From the IMG/VR virus record IMGVR_UViG_3300006802_013268: 64,000 nucleotides of DNA; one strand, written 5' to 3'. Under the pieces are notes generated by a model. That model had not been told where the DNA came from, searched no databases, and worked only from the letters and a program-made list of their open reading frames with translations. This stretch comes from an uncultured virus (IMG/VR IMGVR_UViG_3300006802_013268). Lineage: Duplodnaviria > Heunggongvirae > Uroviricota > Caudoviricetes. The translations under genes were made by a program, and so were the position numbers. This document shows positions 35,954 to 47,919 of the stretch, one piece after another (within the stretch, counting starts at the first letter, position 1; every line of letters starts with the position of its first letter).

Positions 35954-36017
35954 TTTAGACCATATATGCAACCACAGATGCCTACAAGTAGAAAGAAAGA
36001 AACCCCTAGAATTTCTA

Positions 36018-36767
36018 TCATCTCATGTGTCCTATCATCATATTTAAAATCATAGACCTTGGTTTCTTTTCAAAGGCGATCATACTTTCATAAAAAGAAA
36101 TGCTGTCAAGATTACTTTGCCAATAATTTGGTCTCTCTATTGCATCATTGTAGAAATCTTGTTCCAATTGTTTGTCTGAAAGACGAGTCATGTGAAAATT
36201 CCACAATTTTTTGTTTTTCAATCTTTGCATTTCTTTAGTTAAACTTAAAGCATAATTAAAGAAACTGTGTTCTTCGTTTCCTTTCTCAGTATGTCCATTA
36301 TGATCTGGCCAAAAAGAAGTATGAAGATCTTCAACAATATATGTTGCGGTATCTTTTATTTTTGGGAACAAATAATCAAATGTTATTTTTTGTTGGTATG
36401 ATATATGGGATCCATCATCAATAACAATATCAATTTCAGGATATTTGTCAAGGATTTTGTCCAGGTCTTCTGTATTTTGTTGACGACCAATAAAAAAATC
36501 AATTCCACCTAACTGCTCTACTTTATCTACAAGTTCATGCTTAAAAATGTCTAATCCAATTATTGTACTGTTTTTACCAAAATATTTTTTCCAAAGTTCT
36601 AGACTCCCACCTCCTTGGACTCCAATTTCTAAAACAGTCACCCAGTCGCGATTAAGATATTTCTCCAGATGTTTCTGGTATGCCGAAAAATAGGGAGACC
36701 ATTTGTTGGATTTACCAAGTACAACATCGTTTAAATAGATTTTTTCTAATGACATAGTTATGACCAC
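36018..36767 (-). CDS. Class I SAM-dependent O-methyltransferase
   Basis: VLEIGVQGGGSLELWKKYF, DIVIDDGSH, YIVEDLHTS. Confidence 0.85.
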   Translation of the reverse strand: MVITMSLEKIYLNDVVLGKSNKWSPYFSAYQKHLEKYLNRDWVTVLEIGVQGGGSLELWKKYFGKNSTIIGLDIFKHELVDKVEQLGGIDFFIGRQQNTEDLDKILDKYPEIDIVIDDGSHISYQQKITFDYLFPKIKDTATYIVEDLHTSFWPDHNGHTEKGNEEHSFFNYALSLTKEMQRLKNKKLWNFHMTRLSDKQLEQDFYNDAIERPNYWQSNLDSISFYESMIAFEKKPRSMILNMMIGHMR

Positions 36768-37423
36768 TGTAATATGCTGACTGCCTTGAGTCTTATTATG
36801 ATCATATATTTTGTACCCGAAGGAGCAAACTCATCATAATAAGCATTGTATGGAAGATCTGGTAACTGTACAGGGAGATGATGCAAATATTGTGGTTGCA
36901 TTTCTTCCGGAGAGGTTTTCTCAAGATGTTTCATGATCTTCGAATGATATTTAGTTGGGAAAGACCAAAAAATATCAGCAACCCCACGTATAGTTTTCTT
37001 CTTAAACCACATTTCTCTTACGCCGTCTGCAAGTTCCCAATGTAAGAATGTGACATCCGTTTCGTTTATTTCTGGCCAATCACACTCTACCCATAGATCA
37101 GGACGAGTGACAACAATTACATCATATTTTTCTGGGTCTATTTGCCGCAATCCTGCAGCAATTGTACCTCTTTGACTAACGTCATCAGGAACCACAACTG
37201 TTCCAACAACAGAATGAAATCGATTTATGTACTCAGGCAATACGGGAGAAGGGTGAGTTGAAAGGTAAATATCAGCGTCGTGAGGAATTTTATCGTGTAA
37301 ATTTCCAGTATCAAAATGCGTTCCATTACGAGACGATATTCGAATGTTTTTTTCTCGCAGACCCTTACCAATGACTTTGGTAATTTGATAATGATGTCCT
37401 GCTAATAAAACTGCTACTTTCAT
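36758..37423 (-). CDS. Hypothetical, putative glycan-synthesis protein
   Basis: MKVAVLLAG, DIYLST, YDVIVVTRPDL; similar layout to 44598-45413. Confidence 0.55.
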   Translation of the reverse strand: MKVAVLLAGHHYQITKVIGKGLREKNIRISSRNGTHFDTGNLHDKIPHDADIYLSTHPSPVLPEYINRFHSVVGTVVVPDDVSQRGTIAAGLRQIDPEKYDVIVVTRPDLWVECDWPEINETDVTFLHWELADGVREMWFKKKTIRGVADIFWSFPTKYHSKIMKHLEKTSPEEMQPQYLHHLPVQLPDLPYNAYYDEFAPSGTKYMIIIRLKAVSILQWS

Positions 37424-37437
37424 ACAATCTCCGAAGT

Positions 37438-37514
37438 TGGTCGGGGCAGAGAGATTCGAACTCCCGACCCTCTGCTCCCAAAGCAGATGCGCTACCAGAC
37501 TGCGCTATGCCCCG
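37438..37514 (-). tRNA. tRNA-Pro (TGG)
   Basis: Full cloverleaf; anticodon arm TCTGC-TTTGGGA-GCAGA, GTTCGAATC T-loop, encoded CCA. Confidence 0.97.
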
Positions 37515-37518
37515 AAAT

Positions 37519-37604
37519 TGGTGGAGGCGGTTAGACTTGAACTAACAATGCCATTCGGCGTCGGATTTACAGTCCGATGGGGTTACCAATTTTCCTACAC
37601 CTCC
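37519..37604 (-). tRNA. tRNA-Tyr (GTA)
   Basis: Anticodon arm TCGGA-CTGTAAA-TCCGA, long variable arm, GTTAG-TTCAAGT-CTAAC T-arm, encoded CCA. Confidence 0.95.
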
Positions 37605-37609
37605 AAGTT

Positions 37610-37692
37610 GATACAGTCGCCCCACCTACTAGAAACTCCCCGCGCTGTATCTGACGATCCTAATTTGTTAAGGAGAGAGTATATAGATCGTC
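37610..37692 (-). ncRNA. Candidate two-hairpin small RNA directly upstream of the tRNAs
   Basis: Stems GACGATC/GATCGTC (37653-59, 37686-92) and GATACAG/CTGTATC (37610-16, 37645-51) separated by 1 nt; no plausible ORF. Confidence 0.55.
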
Positions 37693-37705
37693 TTACCAAA
37701 CTGAA

Positions 37706-37870
37706 TTACTGAACTCCTTCTTCGATTTCAATCTCGTAATGACGTTTCAATTCATTGTACGCAGCAACGAGATCACGATAAGTTTCGCTGGTAAAAGACC
37801 ATCGATACTTCTCAAACTCACGAGCAAACGAACGAGACAAACGAATCTCTTCGTAGTACATATCTTCCAT
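37706..37870 (-). CDS. Small hypothetical protein (54 aa)
   Basis: Manual translation MEDMYYEEIRLSRSFARE...AYNELKRHY; TAATG-coupled. Confidence 0.6.
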   Translation of the reverse strand: MEDMYYEEIRLSRSFAREFEKYRWSFTSETYRDLVAAYNELKRHYEIEIEEGVQ

Positions 37871-38307
37871 TAACCTTTCCTCCATGCTTCGTAATCAACT
37901 TCATACTCTGCCATCAATTCGACAGCACGTTCTTCAGAATATCCAAGTTCCATTAAACGATTCACGAAAGAACTATCCTCAGAATAATCATGCAGTCTCC
38001 AATCACACAGAATGTTCAGTTCCGCTCGGGGATAAGACTTAGGATTAGGCATCGTTCTGGGAACAGGTTTCAACAACTCTTCAAGAACAGGCATCTTAGG
38101 ACGATAGTTAGCAATCAAAGTCTCTACTTGCTGCTTATACCCACGTGCAATTAATACATTCTTGAGGTAGTTGATCTCGCTAGCAACACGAAGACCTGCA
38201 TAATAGGCATCGCCATTCGCCATCTGAAAGTACCAGTCATGATTCGCACATGTATCTTTAAGATGATTCACGATGTGCATCGTGTGAGTTTCGTTGGTGA
38301 TTTGCAT
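37870..38307 (-). CDS. Hypothetical early protein
   Basis: 145 aa, HDWYF motif, TAATG-coupled. Confidence 0.65.
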   Translation of the reverse strand: MQITNETHTMHIVNHLKDTCANHDWYFQMANGDAYYAGLRVASEINYLKNVLIARGYKQQVETLIANYRPKMPVLEELLKPVPRTMPNPKSYPRAELNILCDWRLHDYSEDSSFVNRLMELGYSEERAVELMAEYEVDYEAWRKG

Positions 38308-38546
38308 TATGCTACCTCTTTCTTCTCGATAATGAGATCAAAATACTTGCGAAGTTCACGCTTGGTCATTTGACTATCACGATCCAAAAACTTGACGAGT
38401 ACTGTGAACTCTTTGGACGTTAATTTTTCGCCAAGTTCTAATCTGAACTTGTACTTATCAAGCGTGCTTTTCATCAAAGTATGCTCTTCCAATAGGAGAA
38501 AATCGAGATAACGAATCATCAACCTCCTAAGTTCTTTCTCCTTCAT
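38307..38546 (-). CDS. Hypothetical early protein
   Basis: Probable start MKEKEL at 38546, ATGA-coupled. Confidence 0.6.
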   Translation of the reverse strand: MKEKELRRLMIRYLDFLLLEEHTLMKSTLDKYKFRLELGEKLTSKEFTVLVKFLDRDSQMTKRELRKYFDLIIEKKEVA

Positions 38547-38704
38547 AGTACCCACCATGGTAAGATTGCCAACGCTGCCATGAACAAGAAGATTCCTAGC
38601 AAACCCACTGCACCACCAATGATTGCCATGAGTTCATCGCTTTCGCCGCGCAGCGTCGCCGGACGCTTATAAACCCCACCAACTTGATTCCTTGAATACT
38701 GCAT
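38543..38704 (-). CDS. Small membrane protein (53 aa)
   Basis: Manual translation MQYSRNQVGG...IIGGAVGLLGIFLFMAALAILPWWVL; strong AAGGAG RBS. Confidence 0.7.
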   Translation of the reverse strand: MQYSRNQVGGVYKRPATLRGESDELMAIIGGAVGLLGIFLFMAALAILPWWVL

Positions 38705-38733
38705 ATATCACTCTCCTTAACTTCTATGCCTTT

Positions 38734-38782
38734 ATTCTAACTGAATTCTAACGAAAAAGCAATCTATCGTAAGTTATTGAAT
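38734..38782 (-). promoter_or_regulatory. Early promoter with IHF-like box
   Basis: ATTCAATAACTTA-7 nt-TTGCTT-17 nt-TAGAAT. Confidence 0.75.
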
Positions 38783-38953
38783 TCCCAGATAATAATCCAA
38801 ATTCCTCACACGCTCAATGCCAGTACGATATGCTTCCAAGAATTCTTCTGAGACATTACCACCAAGCAAACTCAGAATCTCTTCATTAGACATGGATAGA
38901 TCCCATTTGCCTGAATCAAAGTCTTTCTTTGCTTGGTAATATCCAACGTCCAT
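38774..38953 (-). CDS. Small hypothetical early protein
   Basis: Probable start MDVGYYQAKKD at 38953; resembles 39206-39364. Confidence 0.6.
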   Translation of the reverse strand: MDVGYYQAKKDFDSGKWDLSMSNEEILSLLGGNVSEEFLEAYRTGIERVRNLDYYLGIQ

Positions 38954-38954
38954 A

Positions 38955-39137
38955 TTAGTTGATTGCTTTACCATCAAAACCCTGATTCCAGCGGTCTTCG
39001 ATTCTTCTCTTAGGTGAACCACCCTGTGCGGTGAATCCAATTCTGCGTAACTTCTTGGGTGCTACCACTGTTACCTTACCACCTTTTGCCAAGAATTCTG
39101 CCACTTGCTTTTCAATCTCAGTACTTGCTTTTTTCAC
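38955..39137 (-). CDS. Small early protein resembling the SutA RNA-polymerase-binding domain
   Basis: IEKQVAEFLAKGGKVTVVAP matches the EFLxxGGKV SutA-type motif. Confidence 0.6.
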   Translation of the reverse strand: MKKASTEIEKQVAEFLAKGGKVTVVAPKKLRRIGFTAQGGSPKRRIEDRWNQGFDGKAIN

Positions 39138-39165
39138 TATTTAACTCTCTATGATTTATGCTGTT

Positions 39166-39214
39166 ATTATACCATACACACACTGAAAAAGAAACCTACC
39201 CTAACTTATTGATT
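39166..39214 (-). promoter_or_regulatory. Early promoter with IHF box
   Basis: AATCAATAAGTTA-7 nt-TTTCTT-17 nt-TATAAT with extended -10 TG. Confidence 0.8.
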
Positions 39215-39364
39215 TTCCAGACCTTTTAGATAACCTTCAATATAGGACTCAGAAGGGTTCATCATTCCAATTAATATAGCACGCACCCTAACAGGATCAG
39301 TGGTTTCAACCCAACCTTCAGATAGGTCCAACTTAGCATCATTATAACCTTTTTCGAAATCCAT
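39206..39364 (-). CDS. Small hypothetical early protein (52 aa)
   Basis: Manual translation MDFEKGYNDAKLDLSEGW...SESYIEGYLKGLENQ; GGAG RBS. Confidence 0.65.
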   Translation of the reverse strand: MDFEKGYNDAKLDLSEGWVETTDPVRVRAILIGMMNPSESYIEGYLKGLENQ

Positions 39365-39390
39365 TATATACTCTCCATTCATGTGCTGAT

Positions 39391-39439
39391 ATTATACCAT
39401 ACAGTGGGGACAAATAAAATCTCGTACAAGTGCTTGTTT
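39391..39439 (-). promoter_or_regulatory. Early promoter with IHF-like box
   Basis: AAACAAGCACTTG-7 nt-TTTTAT-17 nt-TATAAT with extended -10 TG. Confidence 0.75.
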
Positions 39440-39592
39440 TTGCAGGAAAAAAAATTTTTATATTCGGGTCCCCCCAGTGAATTATGGTGTGGGATTGTAG
39501 AAAAGGGGGAACGGGACTCTAAGTAAAGCTCGAGGAAACGGGACTCCTACTTCAATTATAATCGGGTCCCTCCATTACCATACCATAGCATT

Positions 39593-39634
39593 AAAAAACC
39601 CCCAGAGGACGCATACGGAAGCGTCATGGGGGCA
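39593..39634 (-). terminator. Intrinsic terminator with long interrupted stem
   Basis: Minus strand CCCCCA-T-GACGC...GCGTC-CTC-TGGGGG then T6. Confidence 0.65.
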
Positions 39635-39651
39635 ACAGGAGTTATGTTATG

Positions 39652-39930
39652 TTATGCAAACTCTTCATAATATGCTTCAGTGAACACGTGATCCTCACTG
39701 AGTGCAGTCACACGACCTTCGTAATCAAACATGGTACGGAAGGGAACACGAATCTCAACACCCTCTTTCATACGAGCAGTATCGAATGCCGTATCCTTGA
39801 TGATAGTTTCGCCTTTGATGACATAGGCAAATTCTTCGATACGATCAATGGCACCTATGACATACTTATCGTCACGACCAGGAATTGGTTCGAACTCATA
39901 TGCTTTGATCAGATCACCGTTTCTTAACAT
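39652..39930 (-). CDS. Hypothetical early protein
   Basis: Probable start MLRNGDLIKAYEF after AAGGAG RBS. Confidence 0.7.
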   Translation of the reverse strand: MLRNGDLIKAYEFEPIPGRDDKYVIGAIDRIEEFAYVIKGETIIKDTAFDTARMKEGVEIRVPFRTMFDYEGRVTALSEDHVFTEAYYEEFA

Positions 39931-39957
39931 ATCTCTTTTCTCCTTAATCATGATGCT

Positions 39958-40006
39958 ATTATACCATACAGTGAGGGAAAAGAAAATCTATGCTAAGTCT
40001 TTGATT
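39958..40006 (-). promoter_or_regulatory. Early promoter with IHF box
   Basis: AATCAAAGACTTA-7 nt-TTTTCT-17 nt-TATAAT with extended -10 TG. Confidence 0.8.
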
Positions 40007-40316
40007 TGCTTACCTTTTTCTGTACTCGCCCATCAAAGAACAGTGGGATGTACCACCAAGGGGATCTCCATGAGGGATCATCTAATGCTGTCAAACGATA
40101 CTCCCACTCAGTGCCATGATCATCCACCCAGGTTATATGATACCCATGCCATGTCTTACTGGGATAAAATTTCAAATGCCCACCATGACGAATACGCTGC
40201 TCAAATGACCAAAACCAACAGTTGTTCTTATTAGATACCAATCGTGCGGGGAACCATGCTAATCCAAATATGAATAACATGACGAATGATACAATTGGTC
40301 GAGTTACTTGATCCAT
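39993..40316 (-). CDS. Hypothetical membrane-anchored Trp-rich protein
   Basis: N-terminal hydrophobic helix, overlaps the YbaN-like gene. Confidence 0.6.
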   Translation of the reverse strand: MDQVTRPIVSFVMLFIFGLAWFPARLVSNKNNCWFWSFEQRIRHGGHLKFYPSKTWHGYHITWVDDHGTEWEYRLTALDDPSWRSPWWYIPLFFDGRVQKKVSKSKT

Positions 40317-40711
40317 GCGATACGCTCTCCATTGGCCACTCTTCGATCATATTCCTCAGGTGATCCAGGATATCTCCATCCCCAAATACATACGAGCACC
40401 ATGGTGATTCCAGTATAGATTACTCCCTTAATAGGCACAGTGAAGTACATTATAATCAGTGATGATAACATCATGATTGCCATTAGATACTTTGCCCTAG
40501 TAGGAAAGACACGCTTCTGATTCCAATTGGTGATAAACGGACCAAACACACGGTGATTCATCAGATAATTGTGCATACGAGGTGAAGATTTAGCGAAACA
40601 AAATGCTGCTCCGAGTACGAAATGACTAAAGGGAATGCCAGGTGTCACCACGCCAATCCACGCAAATACGAGACAAATCCAACCACCTGCCATCCATGCA
40701 TATCTTTTCAT
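40304..40711 (-). CDS. YbaN / DUF454 family membrane protein
   Basis: IGVVTPGIP...AAFCFAKSSPRMHNYL..H..FGPFITNW...RAK. Confidence 0.88.
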   Translation of the reverse strand: MKRYAWMAGGWICLVFAWIGVVTPGIPFSHFVLGAAFCFAKSSPRMHNYLMNHRVFGPFITNWNQKRVFPTRAKYLMAIMMLSSLIIMYFTVPIKGVIYTGITMVLVCIWGWRYPGSPEEYDRRVANGERIAWIK

Positions 40712-40767
40712 TCTCTCTCTCGCTCCTATTTAAAATTTTACTGTAAATTACTGTACGATATATCGCT

Positions 40768-41376
40768 TTACGATAATCGATCCCATACACTCCAGTCTTC
40801 AGACCATTCTATATTATTCTTAGTTGCTAGTCTTAGTACCATTCTCACTGTAGGTTCATTCGTATAGTTCTCCACTCTATGTATTTGGGATATATTAAGC
40901 AGATACATTGTGTCTAGAATATAGGAAGAATGTAGTGTTAGTTTAGATGCATCAAATAGAATGGGATTGTCTGCTATTTTGTTTAGTGATGCATTTAATG
41001 GTGCAGAGACTTGGTGTTCTGTAGTGAAGGAATACAGATTCGTTGGTGTTGAGGAATTACAATTAGAAATTGGCAGTACAAGAGATAGATTAGCAAGTTT
41101 GTGGTCTATGTGTGCGAGAGGAACTGAATGTGTAGTCCAGTTATTACCAAATGAGAATAGACCATAGTGTGATATTTCAATGCAATGAGTTTCTAGGTAG
41201 TTTACGAGTGAAGGAATAGGAATAGGAGCAATGCGTGTTGATCGAATAAGTGCAGGTGTGGGGAGAGGTAAGTACGGTTCCCAGTAAGATTGCGCGTCAG
41301 AGAGGATTGTGGGATCTACAGTCAGACGTTTGAAGTAGAGATTATCGTATGGTCTCGGTGAATTTAGTGATATCAT
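40768..41376 (-). CDS. Cupin/2OG-Fe(II) oxygenase-like protein
   Basis: AHID, LVLPI, LLNISQIHRVEN, RMVL: HxD...H...R layout. Confidence 0.55.
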   Translation of the reverse strand: MISLNSPRPYDNLYFKRLTVDPTILSDAQSYWEPYLPLPTPALIRSTRIAPIPIPSLVNYLETHCIEISHYGLFSFGNNWTTHSVPLAHIDHKLANLSLVLPISNCNSSTPTNLYSFTTEHQVSAPLNASLNKIADNPILFDASKLTLHSSYILDTMYLLNISQIHRVENYTNEPTVRMVLRLATKNNIEWSEDWSVWDRLS

Positions 41377-46051: not shown

Positions 46052-46770
46052 AGTGTTGTCGTTGATATTGCTGGTTGTACTCGTGTTACATTTGGCCAGA
46101 GAATACCCAGTTGTCCAGGCATCAATTGTTTACACATTAAAGCATCATTTGGCCAAGCACCATACTCTTTGGCCAGTGATATTAATTTTCTAGCACCTGC
46201 TGGTTTGATATAATATGCTGAGTTTCCTGGCAATCCAGCTGGATGCCTCTTATCCTCATTGACATATGGAATGTCATACACTTTTGGTGGTGAGGCAGCA
46301 GGTGTGCCCTGTTTGATTTGATGTCTTATCTCGCGTGCATATATGTCTGCTTTTGGAGTGGCACCTGGTTGTGGGCGATTCAATGCAATTACTGTCTTGT
46401 CGCTCTTTTCTAACACATCAAGCGGGACTCTCCTCTCAAAATGTGCATCGTGTTCTAGGATAATAAAATCCTCATCAGTTTCAGCACATTCTTTCCAGAG
46501 AAAATAGTGTGAGAGAAAACATGCGATTCGTTTCTCTCGTACATTTGTCGCATATCCTGTTTTGATGAGTCCACTTTGTATGTCTACAATTTGCCGACCA
46601 TCCCAAGGATAATTCCACTTCAATCCCTCTTCAGTCAAAGTTCTCATAGCAGCACTCTGCGTGAATGCAGAGTATTTTGTTACATGTATATCTTTTGCTG
46701 ATTGTATACAATGCTCTGCTGCTGCTTCTGATGGTCCATAATATTTTAATGTAATTACTTTCGCTTTCAT
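46048..46770 (-). CDS. GT25 family glycosyltransferase
   Basis: ACFLSHYFLW, ILEHDA, SAYYIKP.GARKLI. Confidence 0.85.
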   Translation of the reverse strand: MKAKVITLKYYGPSEAAAEHCIQSAKDIHVTKYSAFTQSAAMRTLTEEGLKWNYPWDGRQIVDIQSGLIKTGYATNVREKRIACFLSHYFLWKECAETDEDFIILEHDAHFERRVPLDVLEKSDKTVIALNRPQPGATPKADIYAREIRHQIKQGTPAASPPKVYDIPYVNEDKRHPAGLPGNSAYYIKPAGARKLISLAKEYGAWPNDALMCKQLMPGQLGILWPNVTRVQPAISTTTL

Positions 46771-47351
46771 GTGTTTAATGTATTTTGCAGTACCGTGTAT
46801 CCTACGTTTGCTTTCTCTCGGAATTTAATAACCCAAGGTGTTATTCCTGAACAGAATTGTTCAGCAACTTGATATAATCTCTCATCTGGTCTACCAAACA
46901 ATCGAGAGGTGTCATGCAACACAATGTATTTTTGAACAGTTTTGGCATGTAATTGTAACTCCGCTACTAAATGATGTGGTTGATGGTTGCTGTCAATTAA
47001 TAATAAGTCAGTGAGTCCAGCAGATTCTTGGTCAACAGAAGACATTTCCTTTGCTTTAAATTCTATATTATTCTCTTCGCAATAGTCAAGGAATATCTGC
47101 TCAAATGGACGCCAGCGGTGCAAGTCAATGTCTATCAGTGTGACTTTCTTTGGATTGGTAAGACAGGCAGCAGCAGCGCTCGCTCCTTGATGTGTACCAA
47201 GTTCTTTATATGTATCACATTCTTTCATGAGTTTTTGCATGGCATCGTGCTGCCAGCAATAATCATGTCCGTGCGCTTCTTCGTGTTGTTTGCGTATCTC
47301 AGTATAAAACTCAGGTAGAGTTTTTACATGGTCTAGTTTTGCATTAATCAT
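46767..47351 (-). CDS. Class I SAM methyltransferase (Methyltransf_24-like)
   Basis: ELGTHQGAS, DLLLIDSNH, YIVLHDT. Confidence 0.78.
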   Translation of the reverse strand: MINAKLDHVKTLPEFYTEIRKQHEEAHGHDYCWQHDAMQKLMKECDTYKELGTHQGASAAAACLTNPKKVTLIDIDLHRWRPFEQIFLDYCEENNIEFKAKEMSSVDQESAGLTDLLLIDSNHQPHHLVAELQLHAKTVQKYIVLHDTSRLFGRPDERLYQVAEQFCSGITPWVIKFREKANVGYTVLQNTLNT

Positions 47352-47919
47352 CTAAATCGCTCTCCTTAATTACACAAACCAAAACTTTTGCAGTTTTACT
47401 TCCATGAAATCTATCAATAATCTCAAAACCGTTCTTTTGTAACAATTCAATGACTTCAGATTCTGTTGCATCTAAACAATCTGCTGGTTCACAGACACTA
47501 TCTTTTTCACTATATTCTAAATATAGTCTTCCTGATTTGCTCAGCTGATCTTTCCAAGTTTGTATCGTTTTTTCTGGCACGTTCGAGTGATCAAATGCAT
47601 TAGAATAAACAATATCTGCCTTTCCTATCCATTCTTCTTTTGGAATAGAAAAATCGTGTTGAACAGTCATTTCGAACGTTTCAGCATTATCACTAATTTC
47701 TGTTCCTATAATTTCTGCGTTCGGAAGATGTTTTTTAAAAAATTTTTGTTCCGAACCATTTCTTGTGCCATGACAGATTACAAATTTACAATCGGGATTG
47801 TCTTCACAAATCCTTCTTATCTTTTCTGGATTTGCATACACCCATTTGATTTTACTTTTATTGGTCTTTGTTTGTGCTTTGACATATTCTTCGTAAGATT
47901 CGTGTTTATAAATTTTCAT
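47344..47919 (-). CDS. Putative SAM-dependent methyltransferase
   Basis: CHGTRNG, GTEIS, DIVYSNAFDH, L..SGRLYL. Confidence 0.7.
   Translation of the reverse strand: MKIYKHESYEEYVKAQTKTNKSKIKWVYANPEKIRRICEDNPDCKFVICHGTRNGSEQKFFKKHLPNAEIIGTEISDNAETFEMTVQHDFSIPKEEWIGKADIVYSNAFDHSNVPEKTIQTWKDQLSKSGRLYLEYSEKDSVCEPADCLDATESEVIELLQKNGFEIIDRFHGSKTAKVLVCVIKESDLDD

Follow-up and report, generated by a model that had tools for sequence, protein, structure and literature searches.

A two-hairpin element with a loop antisense to early translation initiation regions, upstream of tRNA-Tyr in an uncultured T4-like phage: a candidate translation-silencing RNA

The 3'ETS-leuZ RNA of Escherichia coli, a processing by-product of a tRNA precursor that acts by base-pairing, derives from a tRNA spacer and sponges small RNAs (sRNAs). 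RNase P is described as releasing the C4 RNA of phages P1 and P7 from a longer transcript, and the loop of this RNA as covering a ribosome-binding site (RBS) (PMC5320573). Cuckoo RNAs (alpha-r14/RSs0680, Alphaproteobacteria) consist, in the available account, of two to four adjacent hairpins, each 24-50 nt long and separated from the next by no more than 10 nt, with helices of 6 bp or more and 9-27-nt loops that hold a word resembling an anti-Shine-Dalgarno (anti-SD) sequence (PMC4615179). In T4, early mRNAs are reported to be inactivated by RegB at GGAG-type Shine-Dalgarno (SD) sequences soon after infection (PMC3014915), and T4-type phages are described as shuffling genes by means of PeSL cassettes, promoter-SD-start units with the SD and start codon at their end, degraded copies of which are also present (PMC4122927). 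Here, we describe an 83-nt noncoding element of two adjacent hairpins, located on the minus strand just upstream of a tRNA-Tyr gene in a stretch of 64,000 nt from an uncultured virus (IMG/VR record IMGVR_UViG_3300006802_013268; the whole stretch is referred to as the window), whose first loop is antisense to the translation initiation regions (TIRs) of early genes. The element belongs to neither the C4 nor the cuckoo family, defining features of which were looked for and not recovered, and we consider it a credible candidate for a translation-silencing RNA, plausible in a single lineage and assessed in silico.

A preliminary description of this DNA had placed an 83-nt noncoding stretch with two adjacent hairpins 5 nt upstream of tRNA-Tyr; the position is borne out by ARAGORN and Rfam (the gap is 37605-37609) and the fold by computation. 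The hairpins span 40 and 42 nt, with stems of 8 and 10 bp and a 1-nt linker between them; the stem of hairpin 1 (arms GACGAUCU / GGAUCGUC) has U-G as its final pair and closes the loop AUAUACUCUCUCCUUAACAAAUUA. Along the minus strand, four cassettes, each with a small gene, are followed by four small open reading frames (ORFs) down to 37706, the element, tRNA-Tyr and tRNA-Pro, and the element thus sits between the last ORF of the early operon, whose stop codon (37706-37708) is 13 nt ahead of hairpin 1, and tRNA-Tyr. The minus strand carries every long ORF from 28.4 to 63.4 kb and is therefore the transcribed strand around the element. Cassette 1 and the element lie about 1 kb apart on this strand, presumably in the same transcription unit; since no terminator or promoter is predicted from 38.7 kb to the tRNAs, the element and the tRNAs are probably co-transcribed with the operon driven by the 38.7-kb cassette.

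Loop 1 is unpaired in the predicted ensemble, and opening it takes no more than 0.4 kcal/mol. The four exact matches proposed earlier between this loop and the leaders of the cassette-first genes were all confirmed (11, 7, 11 and 9 nt; Table 1), and a fifth, missing from the earlier list, falls on a strong SD outside the cassette family. Of the 19 positions of the loop word, 17 agree with the TIR of gene 38704, a likeness equalled by 1 of 1000 shuffles. On the plus strand the word reads GTTAAGGAGAGAGTATATA, essentially the SD-spacer consensus of the cassettes but not followed by a start codon, and AAGGAGAG has three occurrences in the window, two of them SDs and the third the opposite-strand copy in the element. 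Antisense matches to three different TIRs overlap within the 19 nt of the word, the sole such place in the 64 kb.

Because loop 1 holds CUCCUUA, a generic anti-SD, the control against ordinary SD likeness is the key one. Leaders of 88 genes were ranked: from 93 ORFs, called crudely and with starts chosen by a plain 9-nt anti-SD, those shorter than 50 aa were dropped together with five calls in the vicinity (three spurious, two replaced by curated starts), and the four curated cassette-first genes were added. By duplex energy with the loop, the four cassette-first leaders rank 1, 3, 4 and 17.5 (Mann-Whitney p = 0.0012), as against 2, 6.5, 18.5 and 65.5 with the plain anti-SD 9-mer (p = 0.044), and the loop-minus-anti-SD energy difference likewise favours them (p = 0.0007). 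None of 1000 loop shuffles with CUCCUU held fixed reaches the observed summed energy (-59.7 vs -39.9 +/- 5.4 kcal/mol). When the opening energies of target and loop are added, the ranks become 1, 4, 7 and 51 (p = 0.0087), in a test whose 60-nt upstream context extends beyond the likely transcription start of these short leaders. The complementarity to early leaders therefore goes beyond generic SD likeness, and the refuting outcome named earlier, that these leaders score no better than random RBSs, is not what is observed.

Table 1. Features of the window in and around the two-hairpin element
Feature	Coordinates	Strand	Basis
Leader/spacer of two adjacent hairpins, 83 nt, noncoding	37610..37692	-	sequence and fold
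Hairpin 1: arms 37685-37692 and 37653-37660, 24-nt loop 37661-37684	37653..37692	-	predicted fold
19-nt anti-TIR word UAUAUACUCUCUCCUUAAC, reverse complement of the early SD-to-start-codon consensus	37667..37685	-	sequence match
Hairpin 2: 7+3-bp stem, one bulge, G-rich 21-nt loop GGGGAGUUUCUAGUAGGUGGG	37610..37651	-	predicted fold
tRNA-Tyr (GTA)	37519..37604	-	ARAGORN; Rfam tRNA model 52.5 bits
tRNA-Pro (TGG)	37438..37514	-	ARAGORN; Rfam tRNA model 67.6 bits
Small ORF (54-59 aa), last in the operon of the 38.7-kb cassette	37706..37885	-	ORF list
221-aa ORF, downstream of tRNA-Pro	37423-36758	-	ORF list
Early promoter/TIR cassette 1; TIR target 38711-38721 (11 nt exact, 17/19 overall)	38702..38795	-	repeat family and profile
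Early promoter/TIR cassette 2, extended -10 TGGTATAAT; TIR target 39144-39150 (7 nt)	39135..39229	-	repeat family and profile
Early promoter/TIR cassette 3; TIR target 39365-39375 (11 nt)	39362..39460	-	repeat family and profile
Early promoter/TIR cassette 4; TIR target 39939-39947 (9 nt)	39928..40019	-	repeat family and profile
Fifth match, 10 nt, strong SD UUAAGGAGAG outside the cassette family, before ORF 46767-47351	47360..47369	-	exact complementarity; rank 2/88

Compared with C4 as it has been described, the element is likewise phage-encoded and directs an exposed hairpin loop (here by predicted pairing) to an RBS of its own transcription unit, the 38704 TIR, with no terminator predicted between. 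It differs in giving no match to the Rfam C4 model and in having two hairpins instead of three stem-loops; RNase P makes the 5' end of C4, whereas it would make the 3' end of the element, and C4 serves lysogenic immunity, whereas the element belongs to a lytic T4-like phage and has four early-gene targets. The published geometry of the cuckoo RNAs is reproduced by the element (hairpin 1: 40 nt in all, 8-bp stem, 24-nt loop; hairpin 2: 42 nt, 10-bp stem, 21-nt loop; 1-nt linker), but the word CCUCCUCCC, which defines the family and occurs in every cuckoo hairpin loop, is absent; one loop is pyrimidine-rich and the other G-rich, Rfam gives no match, and the element is carried by a phage and attached to a tRNA. 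RNA C and RNA D of T4 are also non-tRNA RNAs within the tRNA cluster of a T4-type phage, whereas no sequence likeness to the element was found in 50,697 phage records. Both are presumably larger than the element, and to our knowledge anti-SD logic has never been described for them. RegB, as reported, has the same task and the same kind of target as those proposed here, but it is a protein nuclease that cleaves the site, whereas the element RNA would mask it. Finally, 3'ETS-leuZ resembles the proposed RNA as a by-product of tRNA-precursor processing that acts by base-pairing, and differs in being a bacterial sRNA sponge that covers no RBS.

Given the anatomy, the loop accessibility, the complementarity above both chance and plain SD likeness, and the co-orientation with the early operon, all observed here in silico, we tentatively read the element as an antisense anti-TIR loop in the leader of the tRNA-Tyr/tRNA-Pro precursor, part of an early polycistronic transcript. 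We infer the accumulation of an RNA, its ends, its pairing in vivo and the regulatory outcome as follows. The tRNA precursor would be transcribed from the 38.7-kb cassette, and a cut by RNase P at the 5' end of tRNA-Tyr, expected because this tRNA begins 5 nt downstream of the element, would set the 3' end of the element. The 3' end of the released upstream RNA would be protected by the two hairpins, while its exposed loop would pair with the TIRs of the cassette-first genes and block 30S binding; pairing would be strongest with the first gene of its own transcript, possibly in cis, and weaker, in trans, on the 39364 and 39930 genes. Early translation would thereby be damped or shut off, which is RegB's task in T4. 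In this sense, the earlier proposal that an RNA cut from the tRNA precursor shuts off early translation keeps its footing as regards complementarity and loop accessibility, and loses it as regards the fold and a loop-loop switch. The masked/unmasked switch that had been suggested, with GGGGAGU of loop 2 pairing to ACUCUCU of loop 1, is not supported: its duplex energy of -9.9 kcal/mol is at chance level, being equalled or bettered by 37% (loop 1 shuffled) and 61% (loop 2 shuffled) of 2000 trials.

A wider claim appears doubtful to us at present: that a T4-like phage uses an RNA, in place of or besides a RegB-type nuclease, to silence its own early cassettes, the RNA being an RNase P-released, multi-target anti-TIR riboregulator whose loop is tuned to the consensus TIR of the mobile cassettes. 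If true, any gene newly shuffled behind such a cassette would fall automatically under the same shut-off. A real element would offer a concrete, testable mechanism, in which a tRNA-processing by-product masks the ribosome sites of early cassettes; it would link phage tRNA clusters, early-gene shut-off and mobile promoter cassettes, which are usually treated apart, and would suggest a purpose for the non-tRNA spacers of many phage tRNA arrays. It would also extend the theme of antisense RBS occlusion to the T4-like phages, a group in which we know of no case.

Several findings weigh against the antisense anti-TIR loop. The fold is without thermodynamic or evolutionary support: its minimum free energy, -23.1 kcal/mol, compares with a mean of -21.1 for 200 shuffled sequences (z = -0.67), 47 of which do as well or better. 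Five further adjacent pairs of perfect 7-bp hairpins exist elsewhere in the window, which holds 6 such pairs (20 shuffles: mean 2.0, maximum 5) and 125 single hairpins of this kind with loops of at most 30 nt (100.5 +/- 8.3 in shuffles). The terminator/promoter scan found for the element neither a terminator-type 3' end nor a dedicated promoter. No stem pair can be counted for covariation because the records searched contain no diverged copy; the sole other record with the element is 100% identical, and the element is absent from all 22 foreign loci sharing a 23-nt tRNA-Tyr word and, together with the tRNAs, from the corresponding position of the five relatives that carry a neighbouring 145-aa gene. 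As for the pairing, the four targets are paralogous copies of one cassette and hence represent one or two independent matches; since they share one family, the data equally fit an inverted copy of the cassette-family TIR. The match at 39144-39150, of 7 nt, is trivial alone, the 39930 leader falls to rank 51 of 88 after the accessibility correction (its target is buried), and non-cassette leaders pair as well, namely those of 47351 (rank 2) and 40711 (rank 5, or 2 when corrected for accessibility). Single 9-11-nt antisense matches to the four TIRs are found at 33 places on minus-strand RNA, five of them of 11 nt. The pseudoknot-free RNAcofold calculation does not separate early leaders from controls (free-energy differences, ddG, of -5.7 to -10.8 vs -2.2 to -11.9), a result given little weight since the method is unable to model a closed hairpin loop as a pairing partner. 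Furthermore, the gene calls and start sites are home-made and crude, and the hypothesis was formed post hoc on the same data.

Among the competing explanations, the one that survives best, unlikely in our estimate and yet serious, is a recombination relic: a short inverted copy of a cassette TIR, left without function at a module junction of a hyperplastic early region, with incidental hairpins. In that case it would be an ordinary mark of such a junction. Synteny with the relatives ends exactly at the stop codon before the element, and the tRNA module is absent there in 5/5 of them; T4-type phages, as described, shuffle PeSL cassettes and carry degraded copies (PMC4122927); the plus strand presents a complete-looking SD and spacer with no start codon behind; and structural or evolutionary support for an RNA is lacking. 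A 49-column alignment of the element to cassette 4 even reaches a shared CTGTAT at the same spacing, but this extension is not significant (p = 0.11), and since the cassette profile is blind to the element at E<=100, everything would have to be lost except the 19-nt TIR word, kept at 17/19. Besides, PeSL shuffling works between direct, not inverted, repeats, and the relic leaves unexplained why the word occupies the open loop between the perfect 7-8-bp arms of an inverted repeat.

The comparisons with other records bear on both the relic and the antisense loop. In viral contigs the 19-nt word was found in the phage's own IMG/VR record only, and blastn (word 11) of 37605-37712 against the 50,697 phage records gave no match at E<=10. 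The nearest record, a 53-kb IMG/VR fragment, is 100% identical over 501 bases around the element. Contigs of four metagenome DNA runs covering 36000-41000 show no listed difference inside 37610-37692, and a contig of run X3 (37582-38106) crosses the whole element with 0 differences. The 145-aa neighbour gene has five relatives at 70-79% identity, in which homology spans the small ORF and ends at its stop codon, different genes and no tRNA following; by tblastx it ends at window position 37712 in one relative (L030) and at about 37700 in another (L031). A DNA search of these relatives' records matched the tRNA part alone, in a 146-kb relative (G004), whose tRNA-Tyr is 74% identical and stands at another location; there, tRNA-Thr and tRNA-Asn lie some 300 nt ahead of it, and the sequence immediately before it shows no comparable hairpin pair. 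The SD word TTAAGGAGAG was not found in G002-G004. Since the element is lineage-specific and lies exactly at the synteny break, a recently acquired module fits, whether functional or a scar. Searches with the 221-aa gene returned its own record only in viral contigs, and two weak partial matches (44-45% over about 33 residues) in metagenome contigs; a search with the methyltransferase-like 249-aa gene returned its own record only.

Alternatively, and in our judgement distinctly unlikely, the hairpins could be a structural leader, either protecting the 3' end of the upstream mRNA after RNase P cleavage or acting as a folding insulator or processing aid of the tRNA precursor, the anti-TIR sequence being idle. 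The element's place, 13 nt past a stop codon and 5 nt ahead of a tRNA, and its two stable stems with a 1-nt linker are compatible with this role, the more so as 3' hairpins block 3'-to-5' exonucleases; without a U-tract it is no terminator, and the real terminator at 39592-39633 looks quite different. Yet a loop complementarity above 1000/1000 core-preserving shuffles remains unexplained by a purely structural leader, an exonuclease block needs no large loops of 21-24 nt, and nothing like the element occurs at the 22 other loci with the tRNA-Tyr word or in G004.

That a CU-rich loop resembling SD complements was simply picked by chance from a scan of 64 kb is improbable: single antisense TIR matches and hairpin pairs are indeed common, and the hypothesis is post hoc, but no core-preserving shuffle reaches the observed pairing, a 17/19 match arises in 1/1000 shuffles, and three TIR matches overlap at this one place only. 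A functional plus strand, serving as SD-like site of a tiny or non-canonical ORF or as the start of an antisense transcript, is highly improbable, for although AAGGAGAG is followed there by a spacer like that of the early genes and the plus-strand fold has z = -1.53, no ATG, GTG or TTG stands at a usable distance behind, the sole ORF (37437-37712) overlaps both tRNAs, no upstream promoter is predicted, and the whole 35-kb block is transcribed on the minus strand.

Other identities were tried and rejected. A cmscan of 36000-41000 against 4227 Rfam families (E<=10) gave no match on the minus strand of 37605-37692, the only overlap with the element being a plus-strand match to a microRNA model, noise at E = 7.6. 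A decayed tRNA is not indicated, as ARAGORN reports just the two tRNA genes, no third match to the Rfam tRNA model appears at E<=10, and local alignments of the element to tRNA-Tyr (p = 0.14, just the shared flank) and tRNA-Pro (p = 0.31) are unremarkable. Nor is it an intrinsic terminator: the scan finds none at the element, the loops are of 21-24 nt, and AGAUAC and CAACUU follow the stems. A fifth, inverted cassette was discarded because the nhmmer profile of the four cassettes misses the element even at E<=100, only the 19-nt word matching. Likeness is thus confined to the TIR word, with no decayed whole cassette, and to judge from the sequence it would be the TIR word alone that was ever copied, or alone kept.

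The target cassettes form one repeat family (D1, 4 copies), and their nhmmer profile matches exactly these four in the window (E from 2e-19 to 6e-17; next E = 1.5). The extended -10 TATGGTATAAT is exact in three of the four. Taking the consensus of integration host factor (IHF) sites to be AATCAA, four bases, TTA, two cassettes match it and two are one base off; these IHF-like sites lie about 45-50 nt upstream of the -10, within the stretches 38726-38783, 39158-39215, 39383-39440 and 39950-40007, which gives the IHF-box label of the preliminary description some footing in the sequence. As far as the PeSL cassettes have been described, the four targets resemble them in their AT-rich upstream part, their sigma-70-type promoter with extended -10 and their 3' SD and start codon, in being clustered in a plastic early region, and in that one has a terminator stem-loop upstream; the element differs in being no cassette copy, as it mirrors only the 3' end of a cassette, on the opposite strand. 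The gene of the cassette that comes first along the minus strand (cassette 4) is closed by the strong intrinsic terminator 39592-39633 (G+C stem and U6). On the minus strand of 39440-39655, this terminator follows a gene ending at 39652; after it come some 150 nt of noncoding DNA, immediately ahead of cassette 3, in which a direct repeat, TTATA(T/A)TCGGGTCCC(C/T)CCA, stands at 39458-39476 and 39556-39574; words such as ACGGGACUC pair with this repeat (fold z = -1.62). Outside the cassettes, the leader of ORF 40304-40711 (40712-40745, minus strand, AGGAGCGAGAGAGAGA) pairs with the loop nearly like the cassette leaders.

As to the source of the window, myovirus parts are encoded among its large ORFs, one of them a baseplate wedge protein (PHROG 219, E 1e-136). 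The counterparts of this protein that tblastn finds in Phage C48C1, Pelagibacter phage HTVC008M, Melnitz phages and cyanomyoviruses share only 31-37% identity with it; because of this low identity, together with the myovirus parts, the window is assigned to a distant, uncultured T4-like freshwater myovirus. Its DNA was found in freshwater, estuary and oyster metagenomes.

Some observations concern the surroundings of the tRNA genes. The 23-nt tRNA-Tyr word has 23 viral loci, 22 of them foreign, with other tRNAs or unrelated spacers upstream. In nine of these (L010, L025, L006, L022, L012, L023, L019, L021 and L017; 160 nt upstream examined), a word recurs right before tRNA-Tyr, AGTGTG(T/C)TT..TATAT(G/A)GTA or AGAGTGTGTT, which resembles the promoter core of this phage, GTGTGTATGGTATAAT; it is not the promoter of that tRNA, being too near to its start. 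In L017, ACACTCTCC ... GGAGAGTGT is found 54-70 nt upstream of tRNA-Tyr, where an anti-SD-like word, instead of being exposed in a loop, forms a long-range stem with an SD-like word. The word (C)AACTT stands before tRNA-Tyr (37605-37609), after the CCA of tRNA-Pro (37433-37437) and before the tRNA-Tyr of G004 (L036, about 1503-1507), and its repetition at tRNA borders may reflect a conserved processing context. Gene order around the element is mosaic: the 145-aa and 59-aa genes of L030 are flanked on one side by homologues of window genes from 33.5-34.3 kb and on the other by homologues of those from 31.4-31.9 kb, and L031-L033 have a second copy of the 59-aa gene and, instead, a tRNA-Pro 1.7 kb upstream (positions compared: window 37700-37712, L030 3102, L031 about 3087). 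A contig of run X4 (depth about 12) aligns to the window in patches, up to 37610, at 37979-38023, 38257-38289 and 39658-39684, and from 39831 on, and appears to come from a more divergent relative whose content differs in the intervals, the position of the element among them.

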